Shown here piece after piece: positions 1-12,715 of a stretch of 12,715 nucleotides of DNA. Where the stretch lies: IMG/VR virus record IMGVR_UViG_2565956711_000001; one strand, 5' to 3'. The notes beneath the pieces are model-generated. The model was not told the DNA's origin and searched no databases. It saw only the letters and a program-made list of their open reading frames with translations. How positions within the stretch are numbered: the stretch's first letter is position 1; the number at the start of each line of letters is the position of its first letter. The stretch is from a virus. Lineage: Monodnaviria; Loebvirae; Hofneiviricota; Faserviricetes; Tubulavirales; Inoviridae. Both the position numbers and the translations under genes were made by a program.

Positions 1-297
1 TCACCATTCCTCACGCCTTGCCGGTGAATCAAACTCCTTTTCTACAAAATTTGCAGGGTTTGTATAAGTTGAAAGCGGTGCAGAACTGAGCGAAATCTCC
101 ACCCCTAAAATATTTAACACTTTGTATAGACGCTCAAAACTTGCTTTTGAAGGATTTGACTCAAGGCGAGCATAAGTCTGCTGGGTTATACCCAACATGG
201 CAGATAATTCTCTTTGAGTTAATCCTTTTGATTTACGAAAACCAATTAGAAGTGGACGTAACTGGCTAAGAAGTCTAACGGGAAAAATAGTATCCAT
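1..297 (-). CDS. HipB-like XRE-family helix-turn-helix regulator/antitoxin, 98 aa, complete (stop TGA = revcomp of 1-3)
   Basis: The XRE HTH core (GLTQRELSAMLGITQQTYARLESN) and the C-terminal ...EEW resemble E. coli HipB, which ends ...NLEW. The stop overlaps a possible GTG (GTGA) of a downstream gene lying off-window, as in hipBA. The sequence differs from K-12 HipB and the context does not match the K-12 hipBA-dif arrangement. Confidence 0.6.
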   Translation of the reverse strand: MDTIFPVRLLSQLRPLLIGFRKSKGLTQRELSAMLGITQQTYARLESNPSKASFERLYKVLNILGVEISLSSAPLSTYTNPANFVEKEFDSPARREEW

Positions 298-354: not shown

Positions 355-393
355 TGTAAGGTGTCTTATTACTTTACAGCTTACAAGGTGTAA
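355..393. promoter_or_regulatory. Palindrome-rich putative operator/promoter region upstream of the HipB-like gene
   Basis: CTGTAA-N12-TTACAG (355-378) and the perfect palindrome CTTACA-AGG-TGTAAG (379-393) lie directly 5' of the minus-strand gene that starts at 297. XRE regulators are typically autoregulated through such sites. Confidence 0.3.
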
Positions 394-413
394 GGGTGAA
401 CTCGTTGTATTAA

Positions 414-608
414 CTAATACTGCTCAAATTTTAAAGGTTGCATCTCGCGCTGGCTGGGATTATATTTATTAAGGACTAGCATATAGTGGTGTACGCTGTT
501 ATCCTCTTTGTAATGAGGCTTATCAGTGTGTGAAGGGAGAGGGCGGACTCTGCTTTGCCCTCTCTCTTTCATGGACTTATTTAACTTTAAATGTTTTTTA
601 AAAGTCAT
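414..608 (-). CDS. Small basic ORF (64 aa) whose ATG overlaps the stop of the upstream 186-aa gene (ATGA); doubtful
   Basis: The ATGA overlap at 605-608 suggests translational coupling. The ORF contains a strong hairpin (537-564) and has no recognisable motifs. Confidence 0.15.
   Translation of the reverse strand: MTFKKHLKLNKSMKERGQSRVRPLPSHTDKPHYKEDNSVHHYMLVLNKYNPSQREMQPLKFEQY
537..564. terminator. GC-rich hairpin GAGAGGGC-N12-GCCCTCTC, possible bidirectional terminator
   Basis: An 8-bp perfect stem read directly. On the plus strand it is followed by TCTCTTTC. It lies about 40 bp downstream of the 605..1165 gene on the minus strand, where the tail is less U-rich. Confidence 0.3.
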
Positions 609-1165
609 TGCCTTATTGCAATGGTTTTATTAAAAATCCCAATCAATGTGTTTATTTTTTCATTTATCTTAATTTGCTTTTTCTCTTGCTCGAGAGAAAG
701 TTTTCTGAATTCATTTTCCCTGCTCGGCACGGCAATTATCAACTCTTCATAAATCTCCTTTGCTCCTGATACTTTTTCCAACTCGCTGCTGTATTTTTCG
801 ATAAGAGTTCTTATTTGAATATTTACATTTCTGTATTCATGACTGGTAGCACTTAAAACAAGTTGACTGGAATTTTTTTTGGGTGCCTCAATTAACTCTA
901 CGCTTTTCTTTACGACATTGAATTCAGATGTGACTGAGTATACATATTGATACGCGCCTGATTTTCTGACTTTACTCAATAATCCTTTTCTAACTAAACA
1001 CTGAATTTGGTTATAAGCAAAAGCTTTTGCCTTAAAATAACTTTTCGGAAGTGAAAATCGCTCGATAAGAATTTGAGCCACATCGTTACTGGTGAAGTTA
1101 TCTTTAGCAATATAGATTATTGCGGAAAATATGTACGACTCAGCGTTGGATACTCGACTATTCAT
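605..1165 (-). CDS. Hypothetical protein, 186 aa; N-terminal winged-helix DNA-binding fold (BlaI/CopY/PadR-like) plus C-terminal coiled coil; strongly AT-rich gene
   Basis: The motif ...YNQIQCLVRKGLLSKVRKSGAYQYVYSV... resembles the recognition helix and wing (LVKKGLL...EGRAYVY) of BlaI/MecI/CopY-type repressors. The C-terminal 80 aa are K/E-rich heptad-like. GC is about 30 percent against about 47-50 percent for its neighbours. Confidence 0.55.
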   Translation of the reverse strand: MNSRVSNAESYIFSAIIYIAKDNFTSNDVAQILIERFSLPKSYFKAKAFAYNQIQCLVRKGLLSKVRKSGAYQYVYSVTSEFNVVKKSVELIEAPKKNSSQLVLSATSHEYRNVNIQIRTLIEKYSSELEKVSGAKEIYEELIIAVPSRENEFRKLSLEQEKKQIKINEKINTLIGIFNKTIAIRQ

Positions 1166-1187
1166 ATGACTAAAACAAGGCAGTTAA

Positions 1188-1202
1188 CTTAGGATTGCTA
1201 AG
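1188..1202. promoter_or_regulatory. Operator-like palindrome 1, CTTAG-GATTG-CTAAG
   Basis: A perfect 5-bp inverted repeat with a 5-bp spacer, in the divergent intergenic region between the 605..1165 (-) and 1263..1595 (+) genes. Confidence 0.4.
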
Positions 1203-1221
1203 TATACAACAATGGCAGATA

Positions 1222-1236
1222 CTTAGACAATCTAAG
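1222..1236. promoter_or_regulatory. Operator-like palindrome 2, CTTAG-ACAAT-CTAAG
   Basis: A second copy of the same CTTAG-N5-CTAAG motif, 34 bp centre-to-centre from the first. This is a typical tandem-operator layout for a dimeric HTH repressor. Confidence 0.4.
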
Positions 1237-1262
1237 CATTCGAGGCCAATGAAGATGAATCA

Positions 1263-1595
1263 GTGTCTGAAAAAAATCCGATACCAGAAAGACTTAAGGA
1301 AGCGAGAAGCAGGGCGGGTTTATCACAGCGCTCATTGGGCCTCCTTGTTGGGTTTGATCCCGCTTCGGCTAGCAGTCGTATGAATCATTATGAGAAAGGG
1401 CGCCATGTCCCCGATATTGATACGCTTCGACGGATGGCGGCAGAGTTAAACGTGCCGTTGAACTACTTTTTTTGTGATGATCAGACCACAGCTGAACTTG
1501 CATTACTCATATCCCGGATGACAGAGGAAGAGCGAAGTAATCTTATCGAAGCACTCAAAAGGCATCCAGGCGAAAAGCATGCTGACAAAAAATGA
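1263..1595 (+). CDS. XRE/Cro-CI-family HTH transcriptional regulator, 110 aa (GTG start)
   Basis: LKEARSRAGLSQRSLGLLVGF...MNHYEKGRHVPDIDTLRRMAAELNVPLNYFF is a canonical XRE HTH followed by a short C-terminal extension. It is divergent from the wHTH gene, with the twin operators in between. Confidence 0.7.
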   Translation: MSEKNPIPERLKEARSRAGLSQRSLGLLVGFDPASASSRMNHYEKGRHVPDIDTLRRMAAELNVPLNYFFCDDQTTAELALLISRMTEEERSNLIEALKRHPGEKHADKK

Positions 1596-1756
1596 TATTA
1601 CATATAAAGCGACTGAACTTTTTGAAGGTAACGAAAGTGTAGCATTACACTGATGCAATGAACCAAGCAGGACATTACAGTGGGAGACGCCCTCTCAGAT
1701 AACAAACTCAAAAGAGGGAGCCATAAATATATGTTTATCAATACAACCAGCATTCT

Positions 1757-1799: not shown

Positions 1800-2234
1800 T
1801 TATGACGACTTATGTAGTTCCCGAATCATATGGTTGGCCAACAGGCTTTCCACCGGTATAACCGAATTGATTTTTACCGCTTTGACAATTTCTATCAACG
1901 AAAGGGTATTTTGCGCTAATTGGTCTCGCAATTCACTTACTTCAGCCTGCAACTGCTGGTTTCTGGCCAGTAAAGCCTGACGGGTTTTGCGGTTGACGTA
2001 TTGCTGTTTTTCTTTTGGGCGTAGATTCAATGGGCCAAGTTGCTGGTCAACATAGGCAGCAATTAGGCGTTTACGCTCTAGGCTGCTCAGCGTACTTAAA
2101 CCACCGTTAACGATACCTTTTGCCTTGAGCCTAATATGCAGGGCCTTGGCGGAAATAGGGGACTTGTCAAAGCCTTCAACCAGCATCAGTTGTAATTCGT
2201 GCTCAATCAGTGTGTTCAGTTCCTTGCCGCGCAT
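1800..2234 (-). CDS. Small accessory protein (144 aa from ATG 2234..2232; 145 aa if TTG 2237..2235), last gene of the recombinase operon; possible HTH plus coiled coil (TnpC/excisionase-like role?)
   Basis: Its ATG shares the A of the TGA stop of the 788-aa gene (TGATG), indicating translational coupling. The protein has Q/L/E-rich heptads (ARNQQLQAEVSELRDQLAQN) and no catalytic motifs. Confidence 0.6.
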   Translation of the reverse strand: MRGKELNTLIEHELQLMLVEGFDKSPISAKALHIRLKAKGIVNGGLSTLSSLERKRLIAAYVDQQLGPLNLRPKEKQQYVNRKTRQALLARNQQLQAEVSELRDQLAQNTLSLIEIVKAVKINSVIPVESLLANHMIRELHKSS

Positions 2235-4600
2235 CAATCATTCTCCTGCATCAATTGTTGGTATTCAAGTGCAAAAAGCTGGGCCAGTGTACGGACTTTG
2301 CCCTCGGTGATTACTCCACCAGACAACACACTCTCAGCAGCAACCAGTTGTTGAGTCTTGGCACGACGATGCCATTGTGCTTGTATTGCCTCGAGTTGCT
2401 GTAACCGTCGTTCGATGTCGGCCAGTCTGGTCTGGTAATCAGGCTGATGTTGAGTAAGTTGGGTCAACTTCGAATGTGCTTGCTGTAAAGCCTGTTTTTT
2501 GGCAATCAGATTTGGTAGCTCATCTATCCGGCCTGTCAGCGTGAAATGTTCACAAAAGGCAGCACTCTGGCATTTCAGTCGATAAGGACATCCCCAGAGG
2601 TTAACTTCCCGCATACAGGAGCCAAATTTCAGCGGATACAGCACGGCATGTCTTGCCACCATGTCAGAGGCTTGCTCTGGTCCTTCTGCGTCGCGGATTT
2701 CTTCAAAGGCGGCAGCAACATCTTCAAAGAGGCCGTTAGCAAATGACGCCTCGACAAACCTGGCTACATCATCCCGATCGTCAAAAGTATGCAGGTTGGC
2801 TTTGATGGTATTGTCCAAAGTCATGTGTTCCGTGACCGCCAGTTGGCCGGTCCGTTTGACGATATCCAGTGGCGTAGCAATGGAGGACGAAGAGGGCGAG
2901 ACAGTTAGTGCTGTCGAAATCGGCTGCAAGGGCACCAACGAGGCGGCTTTTCGCCGTTCTGCAAGCGCCAGATGTTGATAATGCTGATTCTGCGTGATGT
3001 CCACTCGACCCATCAACATTGCCTGTAAGTGGTCAGAGATATCCGCAATAGCAAGAAAGGTATTGATGTTGTGCCGGGGAATGTGGGTACGCATCCGCGT
3101 CGAGGTGCCATCCTCCTCCAGTAATTGATATTTGCTGAATACTGATCCATCAGGCTCAACGTTGCCTAAGAATTTATTCATAAGTGTGTTAGTGAAGGGT
3201 ATCGGTGTAGCCAGCAAAGCCAGTGTGCGCTTTAATGCCAGCGAACCCTTCTCGTGTAGAAATAGCAGATCCTCGTAGTTAACTTGGTAGCGTTTGCCAT
3301 TTTCCATCCAGGCGTGTGTACAGGGTTCGTTGGCATTCGCCAGACCAAATTCGGTCTTAATGTAATGATTGAGAGCAGTCTTGGAATAATAGATAGATTT
3401 GCTGTTTTTCGGGCCTGGTATTTCTTGAACGGGCAGCACACCTCTTTTGCTAAGGGCTTTGGATGTTTTGTCCCGTTGTCCTGCCCGGCCCCGAAAACTT
3501 GAGGTAGTTTGGGTGATGTACTTCACCACATCGTCCAGTTCGACTCGTTCACCGGGCATGTTGCTGATGGCCTGTGGCAGGTAATCAGCAAAAGATTTTG
3601 CCCGTAGATAGGTAAGATGGCTGCGTATTGGTGCGGTCAACATTTTAACGGTACTGAATATACTCTCGACCAGCGGTACTGCCAGCGGTTCTACCCAATG
3701 CGTTCGCTCCCCAGCACCTTTGACACCAACATAACGGATACCAAGAAAATAATCGGGTAATCCCTTGTCCTGAAATCGTTTGCAGATTGCCGGATCATCA
3801 ATCTGGCGTTTAAACAGGGCATCCTGTCTGAGATTAAACGCTTCAATGGAGCGAAAGCCGGTAATAACCAATAACAACAGGCAATTTAACGCGATTTTCT
3901 CAGCATCACTTTCCACCCGCTGGATTAATGCAACTATGTTCAGAAATCCGCGAATGGTAATCAACGCATCTTCACCATCGGTAGTGGTATCAGACAGCTT
4001 GGCCTGCTGTTTCAGCGCCATGGTTTCCCGGGCTTTGCGGGTCAAGTTGGTTTTGTTGGTATACTTCACATCAGAGTTGTATTGCAGTTTAACCAACGTA
4101 AATGTGAAGTGATTGACCAATTTTTGAAGGCTAACGCACCGCCCTTTATAGTTAGCTGTATTGGGGTCACTAGGAGATGAAACGCTACTGAGAAGATCCA
4201 TCGCTCGTTGAATGACAACTGTGCTCAGGTAAGATGGATGGGTCTGTCCTGTCTCATAAAGCATCGCATGGTACCATCGTTTCAGAATCATCAAAGTTGC
4301 CTTTGCCACCGCTGGCGACATACTCCTATTTCCCTGTCGGTAAACCACTACCAGCATAGCTTTCATGAACTGACTATATTCTTTGTCGATGGGCAGATGT
4401 TCTACAATACCTTTGAATCTGTTCATCTCATCAAAACGTAATGTATTTCTGCCGTTCCCTCGCAACCATCCACTTCCCTGGTTACCACTTACCCAGATAT
4501 GATCATTCCATGTTTGGGCAAAATCAGCAGACAGGTGCTGTTCGAACCATTTTTTTTGCTCTTCAATAAAAGCCTGAAAATGCTCAAAGTGATTTTTCAT
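2234..4600 (-). CDS. Large tyrosine recombinase (788 aa), third gene of a recombinase trio; C-terminal Cys cluster and long coiled-coil tail
   Basis: Catalytic signatures are present: box I Arg (LVITGFRSIEAF), HxxR (HIPRHNINTFLA) and the C-terminal LMGRVDITQNQHYQH with the tyrosine nucleophile. A Cys cluster follows (SCMREVNLWGCPYRLKCQSAAFCEHF), then Q/L-rich coiled coil. An AGGTGA Shine-Dalgarno sits 6 nt upstream of the ATG at 4600. Confidence 0.8.
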   Translation of the reverse strand: MKNHFEHFQAFIEEQKKWFEQHLSADFAQTWNDHIWVSGNQGSGWLRGNGRNTLRFDEMNRFKGIVEHLPIDKEYSQFMKAMLVVVYRQGNRSMSPAVAKATLMILKRWYHAMLYETGQTHPSYLSTVVIQRAMDLLSSVSSPSDPNTANYKGRCVSLQKLVNHFTFTLVKLQYNSDVKYTNKTNLTRKARETMALKQQAKLSDTTTDGEDALITIRGFLNIVALIQRVESDAEKIALNCLLLLVITGFRSIEAFNLRQDALFKRQIDDPAICKRFQDKGLPDYFLGIRYVGVKGAGERTHWVEPLAVPLVESIFSTVKMLTAPIRSHLTYLRAKSFADYLPQAISNMPGERVELDDVVKYITQTTSSFRGRAGQRDKTSKALSKRGVLPVQEIPGPKNSKSIYYSKTALNHYIKTEFGLANANEPCTHAWMENGKRYQVNYEDLLFLHEKGSLALKRTLALLATPIPFTNTLMNKFLGNVEPDGSVFSKYQLLEEDGTSTRMRTHIPRHNINTFLAIADISDHLQAMLMGRVDITQNQHYQHLALAERRKAASLVPLQPISTALTVSPSSSSIATPLDIVKRTGQLAVTEHMTLDNTIKANLHTFDDRDDVARFVEASFANGLFEDVAAAFEEIRDAEGPEQASDMVARHAVLYPLKFGSCMREVNLWGCPYRLKCQSAAFCEHFTLTGRIDELPNLIAKKQALQQAHSKLTQLTQHQPDYQTRLADIERRLQQLEAIQAQWHRRAKTQQLVAAESVLSGGVITEGKVRTLAQLFALEYQQLMQEND

Positions 4601-6149
4601 TGGACTTCACCTGTTCCTGATGAAAACGGCAGCGGGCGATAACAGACTCAATTTCAAACTGTGTGGTTTCATGGATTAAAATGAGCGGATTTCGGGAATT
4701 ACCTACACCGTCTGAAATAGCGATTAGTTCATCGACTTCTTTTTTGACGCATTCAAGTAGAGCCTGATGTTCACCATCCGTAAAAGGGCGATAATACAGA
4801 CAGCCGTAACAAGAACGCACTTCGCTGAAAGGGCATGTACTACTGTTCCTGGAGCAACCACCAATTTTATCATGCAACTCGTCACCAACGAGTCCCACCA
4901 CTGGATGGCCTTTCCAATGTGCTGAGTCGACCAGTTCCCCAGTGAGCATCATAGCCACCATATTTTGCCAAACGGGATTCGACCCAAGCGCTTTAGCACG
5001 GATCAAGGCCAACGCGGGAGTTGCCATAATGTAGTATTTAGCTACGGCAAGAGAGGTGTGCCCCAGTACATGTGCTATCTCTTCAGCGCTAGCACCTTGC
5101 ATCGCCAAAGAGTGCCCAACATTGTGGCGTAAATCAGTGGGTGTAATTGTGGGCAATGCAGCTTCGCCACATGCTACGGCGGCTTGATATTCAGGAGGAC
5201 AGAAATTTAGGATTGCCTGATTAATTGCCTGAGACACATAATGCGGAGCTGAAACGCTGAAATCGAATAGTTTATCTTCGGGGTTTTTCTTATATCTCAC
5301 GGTATAGTTCATAATTAACTCCCCAATTTCTGGGGGGATCGCCAGAAATAACCGCTCTGTCGTCACTCGTCTTTGTTTAGCATATGGTAAAAAAACACTG
5401 TATCGAATCAGACCAGATTCCTGATTTCGTGTATCGATACGAACATCTTTGACCGCCAGCCTAGCGAGTTGTACTGGGCGTGCACCCGTTACATAAGCCA
5501 ACCCAAGGATAGCTGCATTGCGCACTTCGCTGTGACTGAAACTTTTGCCATCGCGTAACAACGAAGCCATTTCAAACAGTCCATTGCAAATCATGTTTTT
5601 TTCAAGAGGGTCAAGAATATTATCGATTTCTTGGTAACCCCCCCAATGTTCGAGATACGGTCGAGGGACGAACTCAAGATCATCGTAATCTTCAAGATTG
5701 AAACCTGGGAATGTTTCAGCACAAAGTATTTTTAATCCGAATAACACGGAATAAAAAGTAGCATTATCAATATCCTCTTTTTCGATAAATAATCGGAGCG
5801 TACTAAGCGAAAACCCACCATGTTCTCGACAATATGAAATGATATTCCTCCAATCAAGGTGCAACGCTGGAAGTTTGGTTGGAAATCTCGTCGATGCATA
5901 TTTGAAACAGATATACTTGTTTAATTTATTTGAGATATAATCTTGATTGAAAACAAGATATCGCCGACTGCCTGAATAATCGAAAGTCCATTTATTTCCT
6001 TTGTTAACAATATATTTATCATCAAACTCCATTGCCGTTTTTAGATAAATTCGATCAGGAATATCGAGTTCAAAGATAGCCTTAGCTAAATCAGGAGGGT
6101 AAACTGAGTTCCCTTCGTCAGATTTTAATGCATTATCAAATGATGTCAT
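4584..6149 (-). CDS. Tyrosine recombinase (521 aa), second gene of the trio, with C-terminal Cys-rich extension
   Basis: VTGARPVQL (box I Arg), DLRHNVGHSLA (LRH motif) and VLGHTSLAVAKYYI (LGH...Y) are XerC-like catalytic motifs. The motif CSRNSSTCPFSEVRSCYGC follows the catalytic Tyr. The gene overlaps both neighbours (14 and 17 nt). Confidence 0.8.
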   Translation of the reverse strand: MTSFDNALKSDEGNSVYPPDLAKAIFELDIPDRIYLKTAMEFDDKYIVNKGNKWTFDYSGSRRYLVFNQDYISNKLNKYICFKYASTRFPTKLPALHLDWRNIISYCREHGGFSLSTLRLFIEKEDIDNATFYSVLFGLKILCAETFPGFNLEDYDDLEFVPRPYLEHWGGYQEIDNILDPLEKNMICNGLFEMASLLRDGKSFSHSEVRNAAILGLAYVTGARPVQLARLAVKDVRIDTRNQESGLIRYSVFLPYAKQRRVTTERLFLAIPPEIGELIMNYTVRYKKNPEDKLFDFSVSAPHYVSQAINQAILNFCPPEYQAAVACGEAALPTITPTDLRHNVGHSLAMQGASAEEIAHVLGHTSLAVAKYYIMATPALALIRAKALGSNPVWQNMVAMMLTGELVDSAHWKGHPVVGLVGDELHDKIGGCSRNSSTCPFSEVRSCYGCLYYRPFTDGEHQALLECVKKEVDELIAISDGVGNSRNPLILIHETTQFEIESVIARCRFHQEQVKSNEKSL

Positions 6150-7530
6150 CGTTATATCTATCCATTATAGTATCTAACGTATTATGTAGCGCTGCATTGT
6201 CTTGAATAATTCGTTGGACATTGGCAGCATTAGCCTGCTCAGACAGGAAACGTTTTGCATATAGATCAGGCATTTGACTTGTCGGACTCCATCCCCCCAT
6301 CAGTCGTAGTTCATCTTTAGCTTCTTCCATTATCCCTGAGAGGGAAGGGACTTCAGCAATAAAGTGTGTTTTATTTTGCTGGCTTTTCAAATATTTTAAA
6401 TGCCATATTTTTTGCAATGTCAAAAAGGCCCAAGTATGTCGGGTTGTATGCGGAGTCAATCGTTGCAACGAGTCAGAGTACAACGGTGATTTGTACTCTG
6501 GATATTGGTTAGTGAAGACCTGATCTATTTTCGAAAAAATAGAATGAACTGATGTGTAGGACAAAGGCTTCGCTGACTGTTGACTCGATGTAAAGATGAA
6601 ATCGTGTTTATCAGTTTTTGGTCGAAGCTTTGCTATATAAATGCTTAAAAAAATATAATCCTGCTTATCGAGCTCCAACACACGATTAGCCCATGCATTT
6701 TTGAGAGATGGCGCATTCTTTCTTGGTTCGTATGCCTCGTCGACAGTTGTCACAATCAAACTAAACTTATCACCTTTTAAATTAGGTTTAATTGAGCTGC
6801 ACTCTAACAACAATAGCTCACCTGTTCGTAAACCATAATTTAACAACAGACGAATAATCAAAAAATTGCGGAACTGAAGATGCCCGGAAGGGAAAGGATT
6901 TAGCGGGTTATGCTTTTGGGCAGAAGAGGGGGTTATTATTCCATACAGGCTGAGCACCATTGCCCCAGACAAACTCTGAAATCCTTGGCTGCTGTGACTA
7001 TGTTGCGAAAATTTGTTTGATGTAAGCGTTCGATAATTCTCCCGGCAAAGCTGTAAACGGGTGTGTAAACGCGAAGCCAAAAGTGATAATGCTTTGGGAG
7101 AGTCATCCCGGTATGCAGGTGATATGTAGGTGTTAATCAAAAAAGAAATGAAATGGATCACAGCACGAACTCTAACTGTATGAGTTAAGCTATTGGCTTT
7201 TGTGACTCTCGTTAAAGACAACACATTTGACTGGACGTTGTGGCCATTTTCTAGATACATCCAAAATGCGGGCATTTCACCGACAGCAATGTCTGGATTG
7301 TGGTCAGATGAATAGAAGCTGTAGCAAAACGAGACACCATACTTTTGCCTCCAGAATTCGTAAAAAAACTTCACAGATTGAAGTGAAGCTGACTGTGTGG
7401 ACAATGAGCGGAAAGCCAAATGGTCAATATGGTACCTAAGGGGATACAGCAACGGCAGAGAGGTTTCCAAGTCCATCAGGATCCATCGCCTTTTACGGCC
7501 TGAGATAACCAACTGCTTTAGTGAATACAC
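6136..7530 (-). CDS. Tyrosine recombinase (464 aa, GTG start), first gene of the trio (TnpA/RitA-like position)
   Basis: NYGLRTGELLLLE (box I), TPHTTRHTWA (HxxR) and LMGGWSPTSQMPDLYAKRF (Trp in place of the second His, as in Cre, then Tyr). A GAGG Shine-Dalgarno sits 8 nt upstream of GTG 7530..7528, and a GATAAT -10-like hexamer lies at 7546..7551 (minus). Confidence 0.8.
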   Translation of the reverse strand: MYSLKQLVISGRKRRWILMDLETSLPLLYPLRYHIDHLAFRSLSTQSASLQSVKFFYEFWRQKYGVSFCYSFYSSDHNPDIAVGEMPAFWMYLENGHNVQSNVLSLTRVTKANSLTHTVRVRAVIHFISFLINTYISPAYRDDSPKALSLLASRLHTRLQLCRENYRTLTSNKFSQHSHSSQGFQSLSGAMVLSLYGIITPSSAQKHNPLNPFPSGHLQFRNFLIIRLLLNYGLRTGELLLLECSSIKPNLKGDKFSLIVTTVDEAYEPRKNAPSLKNAWANRVLELDKQDYIFLSIYIAKLRPKTDKHDFIFTSSQQSAKPLSYTSVHSIFSKIDQVFTNQYPEYKSPLYSDSLQRLTPHTTRHTWAFLTLQKIWHLKYLKSQQNKTHFIAEVPSLSGIMEEAKDELRLMGGWSPTSQMPDLYAKRFLSEQANAANVQRIIQDNAALHNTLDTIMDRYNDDII

Positions 7531-7673
7531 AATATTTACCTCAAAATTATCATGGATATGAAGAGAATGTACTCTGTACCTAATGCAAGAAACGAGAGGG
7601 AGATCAGAAATCCTAACGTATTGATTTATCAGTTAGTGGGAGTGTCATATGAACTTATTTACCACAGTAGGTG

Positions 7674-7701
7674 ATTTAACATAATATACATTATGCGCAC
7701 C
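7674..7701 (-). other. dif: dif chromosome dimer resolution site (XerC/XerD), perfect 28-mer
   Basis: The plus strand reads ATTTAACATAATATACATTATGCGCACC. Its reverse complement, GGTGCGCATAA-TGTATA-TTATGTTAAAT, is identical to the E. coli/enterobacterial dif consensus. Confidence 0.9.
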
Positions 7702-7986
7702 AGTGCGCAGATACGCCAGAAATCAGCCTGTAACCATCACCACGGCATTAAACGGTCATCGCTGTTACGTTCTTTCGTCTTCGACCGTCAGCCATCCGTA
7801 TCGCTTCTGAATACGCCGGAATGAAAAACAGGCTTTGCAGTGCCGGGAATTATTATGGCTGACGCCATAATGCTGTTTATGTCCTCGCTTCGCTGCGGGG
7901 CTTCCGGCGCTAAGCGCCTCCCATGCCTGACGGCATAAAAACCGGATATGCCGCCACGTCACCGCATGATACGTCCGTCGCCACCA

Positions 7987-9249
7987 TCACCGCGCGCGCT
8001 CCTCGTGGGAACTCGGTGCGTGCGCGGCGCTGGCGCGCCTGACTTTTTTCGCCTGTAACACGACAAGAATATCCGTCTTGTTCTTCTCGTCAGATGAACT
8101 GGTGAGCCAGCCTTTTGGCAGAAAGCTGAACCCGGTATCGGCGTTTGTGACCTTCGATTCAGCCAGGCCACCCAGCAGAATAATATCCCCGTCAGCCGCT
8201 GATACCTCCGTATTCACCTCGCGCTTAATCAGCGTCGGGCTGTTATTCACGCCCGTATCCGTCTTCGCAAAGCTGGAAAGCTGCTGCTTAATCACAAGGT
8301 CAATATTGTCAGTCCGGATTTGCGGTTTCACGTCGAGGATAACGCCACTAGAGCGATATTCAATCGACTGGATCGGCCTGTTGTCGGCGTAGCTCACCTG
8401 ACCCAGCACCGGAACCTCGTTACCGACTGAAAACGTGGCAGATGCGCCATCCTTCACCCTGAGCCGCGGGGAACTGACGACATGAAAACGACTGTCCGTC
8501 CTGAAAAGCTCATACAGCGCATCAAGAGAGCCTGTATTCACCCGGATAAAGTTATCAAAACCGCCAGACGCGCCAATCTGTATATTCAGCTTGCCGGAAA
8601 GCAGCTTCGCCGCCAGTGCCAGCCCGGAACCGTTACGCTCACTGGTCTGAACCTCAAACACGTAAGCTGCGACAATCACTTCTTCAGAGGCAGTATCAAT
8701 CAGCGGTAAAAGCGTCTGCAACCGCTTAATCTCTGACTTCCGGCCATAATAAACCAGCACATCCCCGGTACGGTTCATAAAGTCCGATGCCGTACCCGCT
8801 ACGGCCGCTTCTGGCGATATCTGCCCGGACGGTAACGAGTTACGCTGACTGTTAAACTGCCCGGTAAACTGTCCGGCCAGAATGTCAGACAGATACGCCA
8901 CGGAACGGAAGCGAGGCCGATAAACAAAGGTCTCCTGCGGCGGCACATACACTTTCGGCGTGAACGGCGCCACGTAGTCAATGCCCTGTTTGTTATAAAT
9001 CGCAATGTTCATATTGCCGAGATAGCGCTTAATAAATGCCCGTTCATCGATATCCGGCGTGATACGGAACGTCACCACCTTATCGGATTTGGCAAGCTCC
9101 GGGTCAAGCATAAACGGCTTATCGAACACCTGAACGTAAATCATGTTCAGCGCCTGCGGCAGCGGAACAGCGTTGAGCTCCAGACTGACGCCCTTCGCCA
9201 TAACCAGCCCCGGAACCAGTAAAAAAAGTAAACCTGTTATCAGCTTCAT
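7987..9249 (-). CDS. Filamentous-phage pIV-like outer-membrane secretin (420 aa)
   Basis: An N-terminal signal peptide (MKLITGLLFLLVPGLVMA) and the C-terminal secretin motif ...LLGGLAESKVTNADTGFSFLPKGWL...ILVVLQAKKV parallel M13 pIV (...LLLGGLTDYKN...GVPFLSKIPLIG...LYVLVKATIV). The size matches pIV (426 aa). The start is coupled to pI by an ATGA overlap. Confidence 0.85.
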   Translation of the reverse strand: MKLITGLLFLLVPGLVMAKGVSLELNAVPLPQALNMIYVQVFDKPFMLDPELAKSDKVVTFRITPDIDERAFIKRYLGNMNIAIYNKQGIDYVAPFTPKVYVPPQETFVYRPRFRSVAYLSDILAGQFTGQFNSQRNSLPSGQISPEAAVAGTASDFMNRTGDVLVYYGRKSEIKRLQTLLPLIDTASEEVIVAAYVFEVQTSERNGSGLALAAKLLSGKLNIQIGASGGFDNFIRVNTGSLDALYELFRTDSRFHVVSSPRLRVKDGASATFSVGNEVPVLGQVSYADNRPIQSIEYRSSGVILDVKPQIRTDNIDLVIKQQLSSFAKTDTGVNNSPTLIKREVNTEVSAADGDIILLGGLAESKVTNADTGFSFLPKGWLTSSSDEKNKTDILVVLQAKKVRRASAAHAPSSHEERAR

Positions 9250-10280
9250 CGTATCGCCCCTGAATAAACCGTCACCGTTTCGCCGTCGATTTCACCCGTC
9301 ATCATCATGCCGTCAAAGCTGAACTGCGAAGCCGGCTCTATACGCAATCTGCCTGACGTGTCTGCAACAACAACCCATGCCTGACCATCGCGTTTAAGCC
9401 GTCCGGCAAGTCGCCATTTGTCCGACACAACGGGCTTAGCTGGCGCGGCAGGTACAAAAGACGCTGAATTATTTGCGGCGGGTAAATCTTTAGTCTGCTG
9501 TTCAGGCTCTGAATTACCGTTTGACGTGAAAAACCAGAACAGATAAAAAATGGCAATTACCGCCAGAATCAGTAACCCGACAGCTTTAAACCACAACATT
9601 TTAGAACTGAAAATATTCTGACGTTTATCGGTGACAAGTTCCCTTCCCTGCCCGTTCTCATGGGATTTATATAGGGGGAATATCGCCTTGTCATATTTAT
9701 TCTGATAACTGTTCGTCAGATTCGACTTAAACAGTTTGATACCCGTAAATACGTCCACACGGTAGCGGTTATGCAGACCCAGCGCCACATGCTTACTCAT
9801 GCGATACGTTGTTTCCACCCGGTCTTTAATGAATCGCGGAAGGTTGGCAACAGACTGATTCATAACCACTAAATCACAGGTTACGCCCGTTTTTTCATCG
9901 GCAAAATGGCGATGTTCTGCAATGAAAGAGCGATGATTTGCAGGAATCCCTTTATCGTTCTCCCATATGCGCCATGCTTCATCAATACAGATTAAATCCC
10001 CCGGACGGCAGAACGTATCATCCGCAATGCCTGAATCCGTTTTGTAGGGAAAGAAATTATCGTTCTGAACGTCTTCATTCTGAACAAGTAAAATTTCACC
10101 AAGTGATTCCCTGTCTGCCTTTTTAATATCAACGCAGTAATCATAAATACTTTGCGTGGCAAGGCCGTAAATATTACTGACAATGCGACGCCCAGCGATA
10201 CAGGCGGGAATAATGACGCTTGCCACCACTTCGTAAGATTTACCGCTTCCGGGAATGCCCACATACGCAGAAATAGCCAT
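9246..10280 (-). CDS. Filamentous-phage pI / Zot-family assembly ATPase (344 aa)
   Basis: An N-terminal Walker A (GIPGSGKS), a single mid-protein transmembrane segment (AVGLLILAVIAIFYLFWFF), and a position between the gVI and gIV homologues. Confidence 0.85.
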   Translation of the reverse strand: MAISAYVGIPGSGKSYEVVASVIIPACIAGRRIVSNIYGLATQSIYDYCVDIKKADRESLGEILLVQNEDVQNDNFFPYKTDSGIADDTFCRPGDLICIDEAWRIWENDKGIPANHRSFIAEHRHFADEKTGVTCDLVVMNQSVANLPRFIKDRVETTYRMSKHVALGLHNRYRVDVFTGIKLFKSNLTNSYQNKYDKAIFPLYKSHENGQGRELVTDKRQNIFSSKMLWFKAVGLLILAVIAIFYLFWFFTSNGNSEPEQQTKDLPAANNSASFVPAAPAKPVVSDKWRLAGRLKRDGQAWVVVADTSGRLRIEPASQFSFDGMMMTGEIDGETVTVYSGAIR

Positions 10281-10283
10281 AAA

Positions 10284-10571
10284 TTAACCAATCAAAGGAA
10301 TGCGACGAATAATAAAGCGCGTTAACAATGCTGAAAACATCAGTTTAATCCCTTCCGTGACCATAAACAGATTCACGAAATACCATACGCTATCAGGTAG
10401 TGAGGAAAACAACCCGGCAATATCAACAGATTTTGGCAACAGTGACGCCAGAACCGGAACAAACGCCTGTACGACAAAGTACAGGCCAAAAAACAGAATA
10501 AATTTGACAACCACCGTTCGCAGCACAAAACCCAGCGCCACGTTAAAGGCTGAAACCAGAATACCAAACAT
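10284..10571 (-). CDS. pVI-like minor coat protein (95 aa), hydrophobic
   Basis: A small multi-TM protein located between the pIII-like and pI-like genes, exactly as gVI is in Ff phages. It has no motif of its own beyond hydrophobicity and size. Confidence 0.6.
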   Translation of the reverse strand: MFGILVSAFNVALGFVLRTVVVKFILFFGLYFVVQAFVPVLASLLPKSVDIAGLFSSLPDSVWYFVNLFMVTEGIKLMFSALLTRFIIRRIPLIG

Positions 10572-10581
10572 AACGCCTCCG

Positions 10582-12465
10582 TCACGCAGTCAGAATGATA
10601 CGCAGCGAAATAATGCCCCAGATAAGCAGGAATACCGCTTTCAGAAGTGGCCTGATTTTTTCCAGAAGCTCGCAGTGAGAATCAATGGAATATTTATTGT
10701 CCCAGAGTTCGAACGACCATACCGGACACTGAACATCCTTCGATGAAATACTCAGGTTTTTAATGTCCGGCATTAATTCTGTAATTGGCTTGAGAATTTC
10801 CTCACCTGTAGGCGGTTTTTCAAGTTCCGGCGATTTAATGCCGGGGTCTTCGCCTAAATCAACAGAAGTATCGGTATCTGTGCCTGTACCAGGGTGTACA
10901 CCTGTATCCGTTCCCGCACCGGGTCTGGCATTAACCCACGACTGAGGAACGACAACCGGACTATAAAGCAAGCCCTTATCAAGTTTTACGCCAACAGCAT
11001 TAGCCGCAGCCGTCAGTTCAGCCGCCGTAAAAGGTTTATCAAGCGGTATCCCCTGATATCCTTCCTGAACAACAGTCTGACCTGCAAGGCCATTAATAAG
11101 ATTAACCAGCGCAGCCGGGTTTAACTGTTCCTCCGGCTTGAAATCTATATTATCAATAACCTCGCCATTAATTACCTGAGGTAAATTTGATGTATCAAAT
11201 TCTGTATTAAAAAATATCTGGTCTTTAACATCCTGAACATCATTCGTCGTTTTATACACGGCCTTCTCAGGGTGGCAAATACTTTTCCACTGCGTTTTGG
11301 GATTATCAGCCGTACTGCCCGGCGCAGGTACTTTCTCGCTTTTACATAAATCCCATGAGTTTTCAAGCGTAACCGTTGTTGTTCCAACAGATAAAACCAC
11401 AGTTACAATCGATGAATATCCACCAAAATAAGGATTCGGCTTTTCATACTGAAAGTCTTTAACGGAAACCGAATAAACCTTAAAATTTCTTGGCATCCTG
11501 ATATGTAAGTTATTGTCGTCAGACGCCTCATGATAAGTCACATTGGAATGAGAATAACCATTAATCGACTTATAAAGCGCAATCATTACCGGATTATCAC
11601 TGACAAGTACAGCATCGCCCTTTGCATCCCTGATATCAGTCGAATAAGGATATTTAGTACCCTTAACTGACACACGATATACATCATTCGGTAATGGCTG
11701 GCTTATCGGCGGTGGTGCATCAATATTGTAATAGGTTGGCGCAATCTGAACAGGTTTAACCTGATGATTATAAGGGCTTATCGAGTCCTGAATATTCTTC
11801 GCAGAAAAGCCAGTAGCATCAGAGGGCAAATAAACAGCAACAGGGCTTTTAGGTGAAGGTGCAACAGAAGAAGTAACAGTAGCGCCATTGGACAAATTAA
11901 GTAAATAAGTTCCATCATCCTGTTTTATTCCACTTGTAATATATTCAACAGCTTTTGCGCCCTGCTTTAAAGCAAGGTCAGCAACGGAAATAACACCCGC
12001 AGCCTGCCCCAGCAATCCCCATGTTGTCTGTCCGGCAGCCATCATATTACTGCCAAAACTTGAAATACCCGTGGATATCGAATCGTCAATTGTATGCTTC
12101 GCAAGGCCATAAGCAGCCGCGAAAACTGACGTTCCGGTGCAAAGCTGAGGATTACCCACTTTCTCGCCACACATGCGGATTGAATCAAAAACGTCAGGAC
12201 GTTCGCGTATAACCTCCGCAGCGACAGCGATACCCGCGCCCATACCGAGAGAACTGGCACCCGTTGCGAATACACGCCCCGCAGATTGAGAAACAACCTG
12301 AGCTTCACGGGTTTCAACCATTTGCTGAATTACACGTCCAAATCCGTCTGCTGTTACTGCATCAGCATGTACACCGGATGAAACCAGTAAAGACAATATA
12401 GTAATACCTAACTTTCCAGACCCTGAATGACCGCCCAGGCGCATAAAAGCCCCCATAAAAAACAC
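10582..12465 (-). CDS. pIII-like minor coat / host-adsorption protein (627 aa; true start may be Met8 at 12444)
   Basis: A signal-peptide-like N-terminus and Gly/Thr/Asp-rich flexible linkers (GAGTDTGVHPGTGTDTDTSVDLGEDPG) separate globular domains. A C-terminal membrane anchor (LLKAVFLLIWGIISLRIIL) is typical of pIII. The gene lies between the gVIII and gVI homologues. Confidence 0.7.
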   Translation of the reverse strand: MFFMGAFMRLGGHSGSGKLGITILSLLVSSGVHADAVTADGFGRVIQQMVETREAQVVSQSAGRVFATGASSLGMGAGIAVAAEVIRERPDVFDSIRMCGEKVGNPQLCTGTSVFAAAYGLAKHTIDDSISTGISSFGSNMMAAGQTTWGLLGQAAGVISVADLALKQGAKAVEYITSGIKQDDGTYLLNLSNGATVTSSVAPSPKSPVAVYLPSDATGFSAKNIQDSISPYNHQVKPVQIAPTYYNIDAPPPISQPLPNDVYRVSVKGTKYPYSTDIRDAKGDAVLVSDNPVMIALYKSINGYSHSNVTYHEASDDNNLHIRMPRNFKVYSVSVKDFQYEKPNPYFGGYSSIVTVVLSVGTTTVTLENSWDLCKSEKVPAPGSTADNPKTQWKSICHPEKAVYKTTNDVQDVKDQIFFNTEFDTSNLPQVINGEVIDNIDFKPEEQLNPAALVNLINGLAGQTVVQEGYQGIPLDKPFTAAELTAAANAVGVKLDKGLLYSPVVVPQSWVNARPGAGTDTGVHPGTGTDTDTSVDLGEDPGIKSPELEKPPTGEEILKPITELMPDIKNLSISSKDVQCPVWSFELWDNKYSIDSHCELLEKIRPLLKAVFLLIWGIISLRIILTA

Positions 12466-12498
12466 ATAAAATCAAAAAGATATTGAGCCATAAATATA

Positions 12499-12518
12499 AA
12501 GGGGCTGTTACGCCCCTT
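12499..12518 (-). terminator. Rho-independent terminator downstream of the major coat gene
   Basis: Stem AAGGGGC/GCCCCTT with a 6-nt loop. On the minus strand it is followed by a TTTATATTTAT run. This is the position of the strong post-gVIII terminator in Ff phages. Confidence 0.5.
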
Positions 12519-12529
12519 ACCTTTATGAA

Positions 12530-12715
12530 TTAAGCGCCACGAACCATACGCAAAATCCAGCGGACACCCGCAGAACCTGCATACAGAACAATAAGAGAAC
12601 CCGCTACCGCCATAATTCCGGTCAGAACGGAACCGAAATTAACGCTGTTAGTCAGTGGCGTAAGGTCAATACCTTTACCACCAACAACATCACCTTCAGC
12701 AGCAAATACGGCAGG
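12530..12715 (-). CDS. pVIII-like major coat protein, 3' part (start beyond right edge); no M-start ORF in the track because it is truncated
   Basis: Minus-frame translation gives ...PAVFA|AEGDVVGGKGIDLTPLTNSVNFGSVLTGIMAVAGSLIVLYAGSAGVRWILRMVRGA*. This shows a signal-peptidase site, an acidic N-terminus (compare M13 AEGDDP), a hydrophobic core and a basic C-terminus. That is the hallmark layout of inovirus major coat proteins. Confidence 0.75.
   Translation of the reverse strand, partial: PAVFAAEGDVVGGKGIDLTPLTNSVNFGSVLTGIMAVAGSLIVLYAGSAGVRWILRMVRGA

Follow-up and report, generated by a model that had tools for sequence, protein, structure and literature searches.

The DNA analysed here, referred to as the window, is the whole 12,715-nucleotide stretch of the IMG/VR virus record IMGVR_UViG_2565956711_000001, classified in the Inoviridae, and it contains near its left end a divergent pair of regulator genes separated by a short gap with two operator-like palindromes. 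The gene on the plus strand (1263..1595) has a GTG start and codes for XRE110, a 110-aa helix-turn-helix (HTH) protein matching Pfam HTH_19/HTH_3, and the gene on the minus strand (605..1165) codes for p186, a 186-aa protein for which AlphaFold predicts an N-terminal winged HTH and a C-terminal two-helix hairpin. The gap between them (1166-1262) has 97 bp and holds two exact palindromes, O1 on the side of the p186 gene (CTTAGGATTGCTAAG, CTTAG-GATTG-CTAAG, 1188-1202) and O2 on the side of the XRE gene (CTTAGACAATCTAAG, CTTAG-ACAAT-CTAAG, 1222-1236). An earlier inspection of the letters by themselves, called here the sequence-only reading, had reported the divergent genes, the GTG start and the twin CTTAG-N5-CTAAG palindromes, and all of these were confirmed, coordinates and sequences included. 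We consider it probable, with considerable room for doubt, that the pair constitutes a two-regulator control module at the cargo edge of a GInt-like island, with XRE110 acting on the two operators and p186 regulating genes of the island.

O1 and O2 are mirror images of each other, with 19 bp between them and their centres 34 bp apart (inverted repeat I9). No further match to the palindrome was found in the 12.7-kb window even with one mismatch allowed, and neither the window nor the 42-kb locus of strain EC09 nor any related locus contains another exact operator. Shuffled sequences lead to an expectation of 0.27 matches, and two matches anywhere, adjacent or not, turned up in 3 of 200 shuffles. 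Across orthologous loci (given here by L numbers) the half-sites of O1 are unchanged, the sole exception being one half-site of L019 with a single mismatch; O2 has one half-site mismatch in L025, and the inter-operator spacing stays at 18-19 bp. The 49-bp operator block is identical at 40-47 of its 49 positions in loci where the intergenic DNA around it shows 22-70% identity, and the synonymous divergence (dS) from the window, computed for three of those loci, runs from 0.9 to beyond what the method can estimate. Since the block has been kept while flanking intergenic DNA and synonymous sites diverged, the palindromes are far beyond chance. Conservation also extends past the half-sites, to TGTATACT by O1, to ATTGTCT/ATTTTCT in the centre of O2 and to GGATTGC in the centre of O1.

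The protein that would act on these sites belongs to a known class. A phmmer search of PDB sequences matched XRE110 to chain 3lfp, which is C.Csp231I, the controller protein of a Citrobacter restriction-modification (R-M) system, at E 3e-22 (residues 9-94 aligned to 4-89), and to a second chain, 4o8b, at E 4e-21. Identity to C.Csp231I is 45% over 86 aa and includes the C-terminal extension past the HTH, and the PADLOC Control_protein model scores 87.7 bits. Judged by its sequence, XRE110 is therefore a homologue of the C.Csp231I/C.EcoO109I class of controller (C) proteins, the 'motif 8' of Sorokin et al. 2009. Members of this class resemble each other in the C-terminal helices past the HTH, as XRE110 does, and their genes precede and are co-transcribed with an endonuclease gene, an arrangement absent from the window, where the XRE gene is followed by a decayed small open reading frame (ORF) and then by the convergent gene ginD. 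Because there is no endonuclease gene downstream, we file XRE110 as a controller-protein homologue and not as an R-M controller. The 'XRE repressor' with operators of the sequence-only reading is accordingly kept as far as divergent DNA-binding regulators and twin operators are concerned, and is refined to a C.Csp231I-class homologue with a variant C-box.

Two other affiliations were considered for XRE110. It resembles XRE repressors of the CapH/CapP type in being a small XRE protein of a defence island, but its match to the capH model (34 bits) is far weaker than that to the controller-protein model, and the window has a winged-helix regulator as the partner instead of a CapP/ImmA-type protease. 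A weak match to NCBIfam RstR, the CTX phage repressor (38 bits, cutoff 80), raised the question of a filamentous-phage repressor, which was rejected because the module lies within an island ending at ~7700 and occurs in 100+ genomes without the filamentous prophage that fills the rest of the window.

Both genes of the pair are under purifying selection. The ratio of nonsynonymous to synonymous substitution rates (dN/dS) is 0.06-0.39 for the XRE gene and 0.14-0.22 for the p186 gene, and the XRE proteins are 84-97% identical among relatives, against 54-87% for the partner protein within Enterobacteriaceae. The GTG start at 1263 is kept in 12 of the 12 distinct orthologous genes translated, Vibrio included, and all of them lack a clear Shine-Dalgarno sequence, a combination that may keep the level of the regulator low.

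The structure of the C.Csp231I complex allows a comparison residue by residue, since Ser32, Gln37 and His43 contact bases and nine residues contact phosphates (PMC4321490). Eight of the nine phosphate contacts are identical in XRE110, with Lys42 changed to Arg, and two of the three base contacts are kept (Ser32 and His43), the third being changed from Gln37 to His42. The C.Csp231I operator is formed by two CTAAG-N5-CTTAG palindromes 18 bp apart in a 5-5-5 layout (PMC4321490, PMC4824078); it is bound in vitro and is required in vivo for activation and repression, with the distal site activating the promoter and the proximal site repressing it (PMC4824078). The window likewise has two 5-5-5 palindromes directly upstream of the regulator's own gene, 19 bp apart (the C-boxes of EcoO109I are 25 bp apart), but there are differences. 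All of its half-sites have the centre base flipped (CTTAG..CTAAG), together with the change of Gln37 to His; its operators are located in a divergent gap and overlap the putative promoter of a VspR-like regulator gene; conservation includes the centres of its operators and the ends of the spacer, apparently because these form promoter hexamers, whereas the spacer sequence of Csp231I is unimportant (PMC4321490); and XRE110 starts at a GTG 26 nt from O2, in contrast to the leaderless ATG of Csp231I (PMC4824078).

The changed residue and the flipped base vary together. His occupies the position equivalent to Gln37 in every XRE protein adjoining CTTAG-N5-CTAAG twin sites, in loci from E. coli, Enterobacter, Citrobacter, Scandinavium, Photobacterium, V. 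parahaemolyticus and two viral-collection contigs, while in Vibrio crassostreae (L020/L021) the orthologous XRE protein has Gln and the operators read CTAAG-N5-CTTAG. Pattern scans of metagenomes and viral contigs returned 124 twin sites of this second type, and the flanking XRE protein has Gln in 94 of them, Leu in 1 and His in 0; the remaining 29 are on short fragments or on fragments where no XRE gene was found. Both operator types are present inside the subgroup of XRE genes paired with a VspR-like gene. Taken together, this is strong indirect evidence that XRE110 reads the palindromes and that residue 42 reads the centre of the half-site.

The partner protein was more difficult to place. 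Scans of p186 against Pfam, NCBIfam, PHROGs and PADLOC gave no usable family, only a sub-threshold IFT57 coiled-coil match, and a profile search of PDB sequences gave no match. The AlphaFold model, of moderate confidence (pLDDT 72.5, pTM 0.46), has helices at residues 8-19, 26-37 and 43-59, strands at 63-68 and 71-76, and helices at 107-145 and 147-184, and Foldseek related it to the PadR-DNA complex 5x11, to VanR and to AphA at E 2e-4 to 6e-3, as well as to the MecI/BlaI winged helix. As modelled, the fold of p186 is PadR-like. A profile made from enterobacterial proteins only retrieved 51 representatives among 1.84 billion proteins, which makes the family a small one, and the distant ones of those 51 are Vibrionaceae proteins with Pfam VspR_N (PF27213) and VspR_C (PF27192) at E 1.7e-5 to 7e-4, some of them named VspR by their source. 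An hhalign comparison of the enterobacterial set with the Vibrionaceae VspR_N+VspR_C set resulted in 98.1% probability and E 1e-13 over 174 columns, and a hidden Markov model built from Vibrio proteins only matches p186 at E 3e-12 in the local ORF set. A Vibrio VspR profile, searched against PDB sequences, found only an occludin coiled coil, taken as compositional. P0001, a protein 99% identical to p186, has a precomputed match to PF27213. With similarity in both domains and a winged helix followed by a helical C-terminal part, p186 is, according to these profile comparisons, a VspR-family protein homologous over its full length. The sequence-only reading had spoken of a winged-helix/coiled-coil protein, a description that agrees with the winged helix and helical hairpin of the model and with its nearest solved relatives being PadR-type, and homology (hhalign, Foldseek) came out in favour of a VspR-family regulator with a DNA-binding fold.

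VspR of V. cholerae (VC0177) is described, in passages of bioRxiv 10.1101/2023.04.04.535582 and PMC5225090, as a negative regulator of the genes of a cyclic-oligonucleotide-based antiphage signalling system (CBASS) on the island VSP-1, with support from chromatin immunoprecipitation. It is the only family member known to repress island genes through direct binding (Davies et al. 2012, as cited in passages of bioRxiv 10.1101/2023.04.04.535582). The gene adjacent to vspR codes for VC0176, an XRE-family regulator by the account in a passage of PMC12146696; passages of PMC4829181 add that VC0176 influences host colonisation and list VC0176 and VC0177 as H-NS-associated and ToxR-bound in V. cholerae. 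The passages on VC0176 in this literature contain no description of it as a controller-type protein with a C-box.

The pair in the window is similar to VspR/VC0176 in that Vibrionaceae VspR-family genes have a divergent XRE gene for ~100 aa at a distance of ~100 bp, with the same operators as the window. Unlike vspR, which belongs to VSP-1 and is followed by CBASS, the p186 gene belongs to a GInt-like island of E. coli that has an operon with three recombinases, and the gene after it codes for a HipB-like HTH protein; control by a TarB-type small RNA is not known for the module. VspR itself is said to repress vc0176 as well.

Base composition was part of the sequence-only reading, in which the gene for p186, with ~30% GC against ~47% for its neighbour, was considered a recent acquisition and a possible target of H-NS. 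The contrast is real, but somewhat smaller than described (33.7% in the p186 gene and 47.1% in the XRE gene), and it is not unique in the window, as GC is also low at the ginA/ginB junction (34-38%). All orthologous pairs present it (29-34% vs 44-47%), including those in which the module DNA is only ~72% identical to that of the window, so the contrast is old and maintained, which leaves recent acquisition unsupported. That H-NS silences the AT-rich p186 gene is plausible only by analogy with V. cholerae.

The pairing itself is constant. A divergent XRE gene stands beside the family member in 29 of the 29 loci that have a p186/VspR-family gene and upstream DNA, a count that leaves out L007, which ends without upstream DNA, and L144, where the few upstream bases show no XRE motif. 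These XRE genes code for ~100-117 aa, begin ~100 bp from the VspR-family gene and have the twin operators wherever upstream DNA suffices. The 130-aa XRE gene call of L024 is probably over-extended, since it takes in both operators, and a start at the conserved GTG would bring the gap back to ~100 bp. Among ~120 metagenomic loci with twin operators of the Gln type only four have a VspR-like neighbour, which makes the VspR-paired regulators a subgroup within the motif-8 controller family. In L028, a VSP-1-like CBASS island of V. parahaemolyticus, the XRE gene, operators identical to those of the window and the VspR-like gene are located upstream of capV-dncV-cap2. These observations indicate that the controller-type protein with its twin operator and the VspR-like regulator form one conserved module, which may have arisen from an R-M control unit. 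Some E. coli and marine loci (L024 and L025-L027) form another branch, in which a ResIII-type helicase gene of ~460 aa lies downstream of the VspR-like gene and overlaps it, which suggests a VspR-helicase operon.

The module is also tied to a particular kind of island. Four genes that overlap or abut one another occupy positions 1800-7530 of the window on the minus strand; they code for products of 464, 521, 788 and 145 aa, of which the first two have Phage_integrase domains and the third, without a Pfam match, has a weak phrog_1 integrase match. GInt elements (ginABCD) have three proteins of tyrosine-recombinase fold, the third degenerate, and a small fourth one, with cargo starting from the ginD stop codon, as set out in passages of PMC5385486. 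The four genes of the window appear to have this architecture, close also to that of SE (intA-tfp-intB-srap; passages of PMC5385486 and PMC10214605), and the gin names are used here by likeness of architecture and not from a direct comparison with Pseudomonas GinA-D. The XRE/p186 module comes directly after the four-gene operon, where GInt cargo begins, and the cargo of the EC09 locus (a UvrD-type helicase with an ATP-dependent nuclease, and NACHT, SEC-C and AlbA proteins) follows past it, which places the module exactly at the start of the cargo. The sequence is E. coli chromosomal DNA, with at least part of the region in 327 of 5426 complete genomes and at least 80% of the first 2.4 kb in 122, and since identity with other E. 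coli genomes ceases at ~7700-7704, the island ends at ~7700.

In most of the loci with enough flank the pair adjoins a multi-recombinase (GInt/SE-like) operon of a defence island, in agreement with the link to a recombinase element made by the sequence-only reading. The adjoining operons belong to at least four mutually very divergent GInt-like types, to an SE-like type (V. crassostreae) and to an Integrase_2 type (Photobacterium). The words 'XRE' and 'helix-turn-helix' are absent from the main texts of the GInt and SE papers (PMC5385486, PMC10214605), where 'regulator' and 'repressor' occur three times in all, and their passages containing these words, on the prediction of the Srap fold and a cloning reference, describe no such regulator pair. 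As far as the searched literature shows, two known families are combined here in a way that is undescribed.

Two candidate promoters overlap head-on in the gap between the genes. A promoter scan predicted one for p186 on the minus strand (1201..1230), with a -35 TTGTCT within O2 (1230..1225), an 18-nt spacer and a -10 TATACT abutting O1 (1206..1201). The other, read from the sequence for the XRE gene on the plus strand (1195..1223), has a -35 TTGCTA within O1 (1195-1200), a 17-nt spacer and a -10 GATACT abutting O2 (1218-1223). The TGTATACT element is invariant and the p186 -35 is TTGTCT or TTTTCT in every locus; in the candidate XRE promoter the -35 region (GGATTGC) is invariant and the -10 varies (GATACT, AAAACT, GAAACT). 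Conservation of the hexamers from E. coli to Vibrio favours both calls. Alternatively, the XRE gene may have a weak promoter with its -35 overlapping O2 and a near-leaderless transcript, as in Csp231I (PMC4824078).

From this layout we infer how the module would work. Dimers of XRE110 would bind O1 and O2, possibly joining into a tetramer and so bending the 19-bp spacer, in the manner proposed for C.Csp231I. With the p186 -35 inside O2 and the -10 and start site against O1, occupancy of the operators is expected to shut off p186, and because the same operators overlap the candidate XRE promoter, XRE110 would be expected to limit its own synthesis too. By homology with V. cholerae VspR, p186 would be a dimeric repressor of genes of its own island, and the two proteins together would act as a switch or timer for island gene expression after transfer or under stress. 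If p186 also repressed the XRE gene, the pair would be a bistable toggle.

Several points weigh against this proposal. The operators of Csp231I precede the C promoter, and activation comes from the distal one (PMC4824078), which means that XRE110 may activate as well as repress its own gene. The promoter scan by itself was non-significant, with 6 sites against 5.6 expected from shuffles, and both promoters are consensus matches and candidates only. Regarding p186, identity to the Vibrionaceae VspR-family proteins aligned, V. cholerae VspR not among them, is ~20%, its place in the family comes from precomputed matches of its relatives and from profile comparisons, and a search for a repeated candidate target site of p186 found none. 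Finally, the sequences in which residue 42 and the operator vary together are related, and the His/Gln switches among them are consequently few independent events.

The proximity to recombinase genes could also mean that the module serves the GInt-like operon as a switch for immunity or excision, as the sequence-only reading had proposed, deciding ginABCD expression and the excision or integration of the island, possibly through an action of p186 on the promoter of ginA or on the ends of the island, or through transcription of the XRE gene antisense into ginD, with which it is convergent in the window. In most loci with enough flank no more than a few hundred bp separate the pair from the last gene in the four-gene operon; the association spans operon types that are only 30-40% identical or not detectably similar, including the SE-like and Integrase_2 types of Vibrionaceae; and a minimal island (L010-L012) holds, besides the recombinase operon, only three regulator genes. 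Against this, no operator-like site exists upstream of ginA or elsewhere in the element; the search upstream of ginA yielded one half-site-like 8-mer at 7609, probably there by chance. With respect to the operon, the module is found facing either way, which disfavours a fixed cis arrangement such as antisense read-through, three loci (L019, L024 and L028) have the pair and no nearby recombinase operon, and the characterised homologue VspR regulates cargo (CBASS) and not an integrase. We regard such a switch as unlikely, though it deserves to be kept in mind.

The minimal island just mentioned, from Enterobacter ludwigii and relatives, has ~8 kb, consists of the four recombinase-operon genes, the XRE gene, the VspR-like gene and a gene for a HipB-like HTH protein (HTH98), without cargo, and is inserted between a SIS-domain gene and hok/leuD. 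The orientation of the module differs by lineage, between L013-L015 and L016-L017 and also in L010-L012 and L018. Identity between the inverted copies is only 72%, which makes the inversion an ancient one, and no convincing inverted repeats flanking the inverted module were found. One inverted repeat of the window, I1 (519-545 / 1688-1714, 74% complementary), was considered as the border of an invertible cassette and was unsupported, as its arms are a terminator-like hairpin and the decayed small ORF.

The class to which XRE110 belongs, defined by R-M controllers, invites the idea that the pair is the orphaned leftover of a C-regulated R-M system that lost its HNH endonuclease and C5-methyltransferase and is now decaying without a role. 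The classical C-R-M order does exist, though only in L016/L017, where the XRE gene heads a same-strand array of a small DUF2384-like ORF, an HNH nuclease and a C5-methyltransferase, and in the window the small ORF is a pseudogene. However, XRE110 and p186 are intact and the operators invariant, and the XRE/VspR-like pairing is kept in islands of Vibrionaceae and E. coli without adjoining R-M genes. L013-L015, with the same dcm/vsr insertion site as L016 and a homologous recombinase operon, retain the HNH nuclease and methyltransferase genes 7 kb away, with the module inverted and not upstream of them. Conservation without R-M genes and purifying selection on both genes argue for a present role of the module itself, and we find a mere leftover very unlikely. 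The L013-L017 islands are inserted into the host dcm, leaving a truncated dcm beside vsr, and have their own Dcm-like C5-methyltransferase (DNA_meth_N domain) and HNH nuclease.

Finally, a unit for toxin-antitoxin action or abortive infection, in which p186 is the toxic effector and XRE110 serves as antitoxin and repressor, a possibility also raised by the sequence-only reading, seems exceedingly improbable: XRE-type antitoxins with palindromic operators are common, the neighbour HTH98 resembles HipB/Y4mF antitoxins (below cutoff), relatives have a DUF2384 antitoxin-type ORF after the XRE gene and the cargo of the island consists of defence genes, but the two genes are divergent and not co-transcribed, p186 is modelled as a winged helix with a dimerisation hairpin whose closest solved relatives are PadR-type repressors on DNA, it is homologous to the regulator VspR and has no match to PADLOC or toxin families, and V. 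cholerae mutants in vspR and vc0176 have been constructed and studied, as passages of bioRxiv 10.1101/2023.04.04.535582 and PMC4829181 report.

Returning to a control module in which XRE110 governs p186 and p186 governs island genes, a broader version can be imagined, which we offer as a rather doubtful speculation: the C-type XRE/VspR-like pair could be a portable 'chassis' switch timing multi-recombinase islands (GInt, SE and relatives) across Gammaproteobacteria after transfer. Controller proteins are the delay switch of restriction-modification systems. In a naive cell, a strong p186 promoter would be used first, and XRE110 would accumulate and then shut p186 off, as controllers do for restriction enzymes; expression of the defence cargo would in this way be coupled to the island's establishment or excision. 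Through the fast-evolving VspR-like partner each island would have targets of its own, and the conserved XRE protein and operator core would fall into two or more immunity types that do not cross-react, with a code of His with T and Gln with A.

The study of VspR led to the discovery of DncV and of cyclic GMP-AMP (cGAMP) signalling in V. cholerae, and the present comparison would mean that an XRE/VspR pair of the VSP-1 type uses a controller-type protein and a controller-type twin operator. It places such a module at the cargo boundary of GInt-/SE-like defence islands of E. coli, Salmonella, Enterobacter, Citrobacter and Vibrionaceae, and provides a concrete candidate operator for an uncharacterised class of regulators, together with a candidate specificity code in which His or Gln at one residue goes with T or A at the centre of the half-site. 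We see this as an entry point to the regulation of mobile defence islands, and as an incremental advance and not a new principle.

The surroundings of the module contain some smaller features. Overlapping the end of the XRE gene on the plus strand is the degenerate small ORF (1579..1731), with a TGA at 1651-1653 where relatives have Trp. Its relatives are a 64-aa DUF2384 / Xre_MbcA_ParS_C-like gene (PF09722 on the L016 product), and tblastn with the 64-aa product of L016 found 1579-1731 of the window at E 2e-14. L003, L016, L152 and L154 have the ORF intact, whereas it has decayed in the window and in L002, L005, L006 and L009, and L010, L013 and the Vibrio loci lack it; its domain is of the antitoxin type, with no toxin gene nearby. 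On the other side, just downstream of p186, the minus strand has a terminator-like stem-loop without a T run (533..568, inverted repeat I24), not reported by the terminator scan, whose stem is kept via compensatory changes in L010 and L013 (GAGAGGGC/GCCCTCTC versus GAGAGAGT/ACTCTCTC). Next to it, at the outer edge of the module, alignment defined a conserved non-coding block on the minus strand (437..532; CCACTATATGCTAG ... AATATAAT ... GATGCAACC), and the similarity of L003, L004 and L005 to the window DNA begins at 437. An Rfam scan of positions 1-2400 found no credible RNA family.

HTH98 (1..297, minus strand) is a 98-aa HipB/Y4mF-like XRE protein (Pfam HTH_3, E 4e-15; NCBIfam HipB-like below cutoff), whose gene follows p186 in L002, L006, L007, L009 and L010-L015 and is absent in L003-L005 and L016-L018. 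A perfect palindrome, CTTAC-AAGGT-GTAAG, stands at window positions 380-394, ~85 nt upstream of HTH98, and may be the operator of HTH98 itself; related loci have ACAGCC...GGCTGT repeats in the same place.

At the far end of the island, a stretch of ~30 nt (7674-7705) is 96-97% identical in L005 and L009, where the recombinases are only 30-40% identical to those of the window, and is probably a conserved terminal recombination site. The rest of the window (7705-12715), abutting the end of the island and unrelated to it, is a fragment of a filamentous (Inovirus-like) prophage with a secretin (7987-9249), a Zot-family ATPase (9246-10280), a 95-aa ORF and a 627-aa protein without a family match. 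The junction between island and prophage is found in a single complete E. coli genome, that of strain G5, at 93.6% identity.

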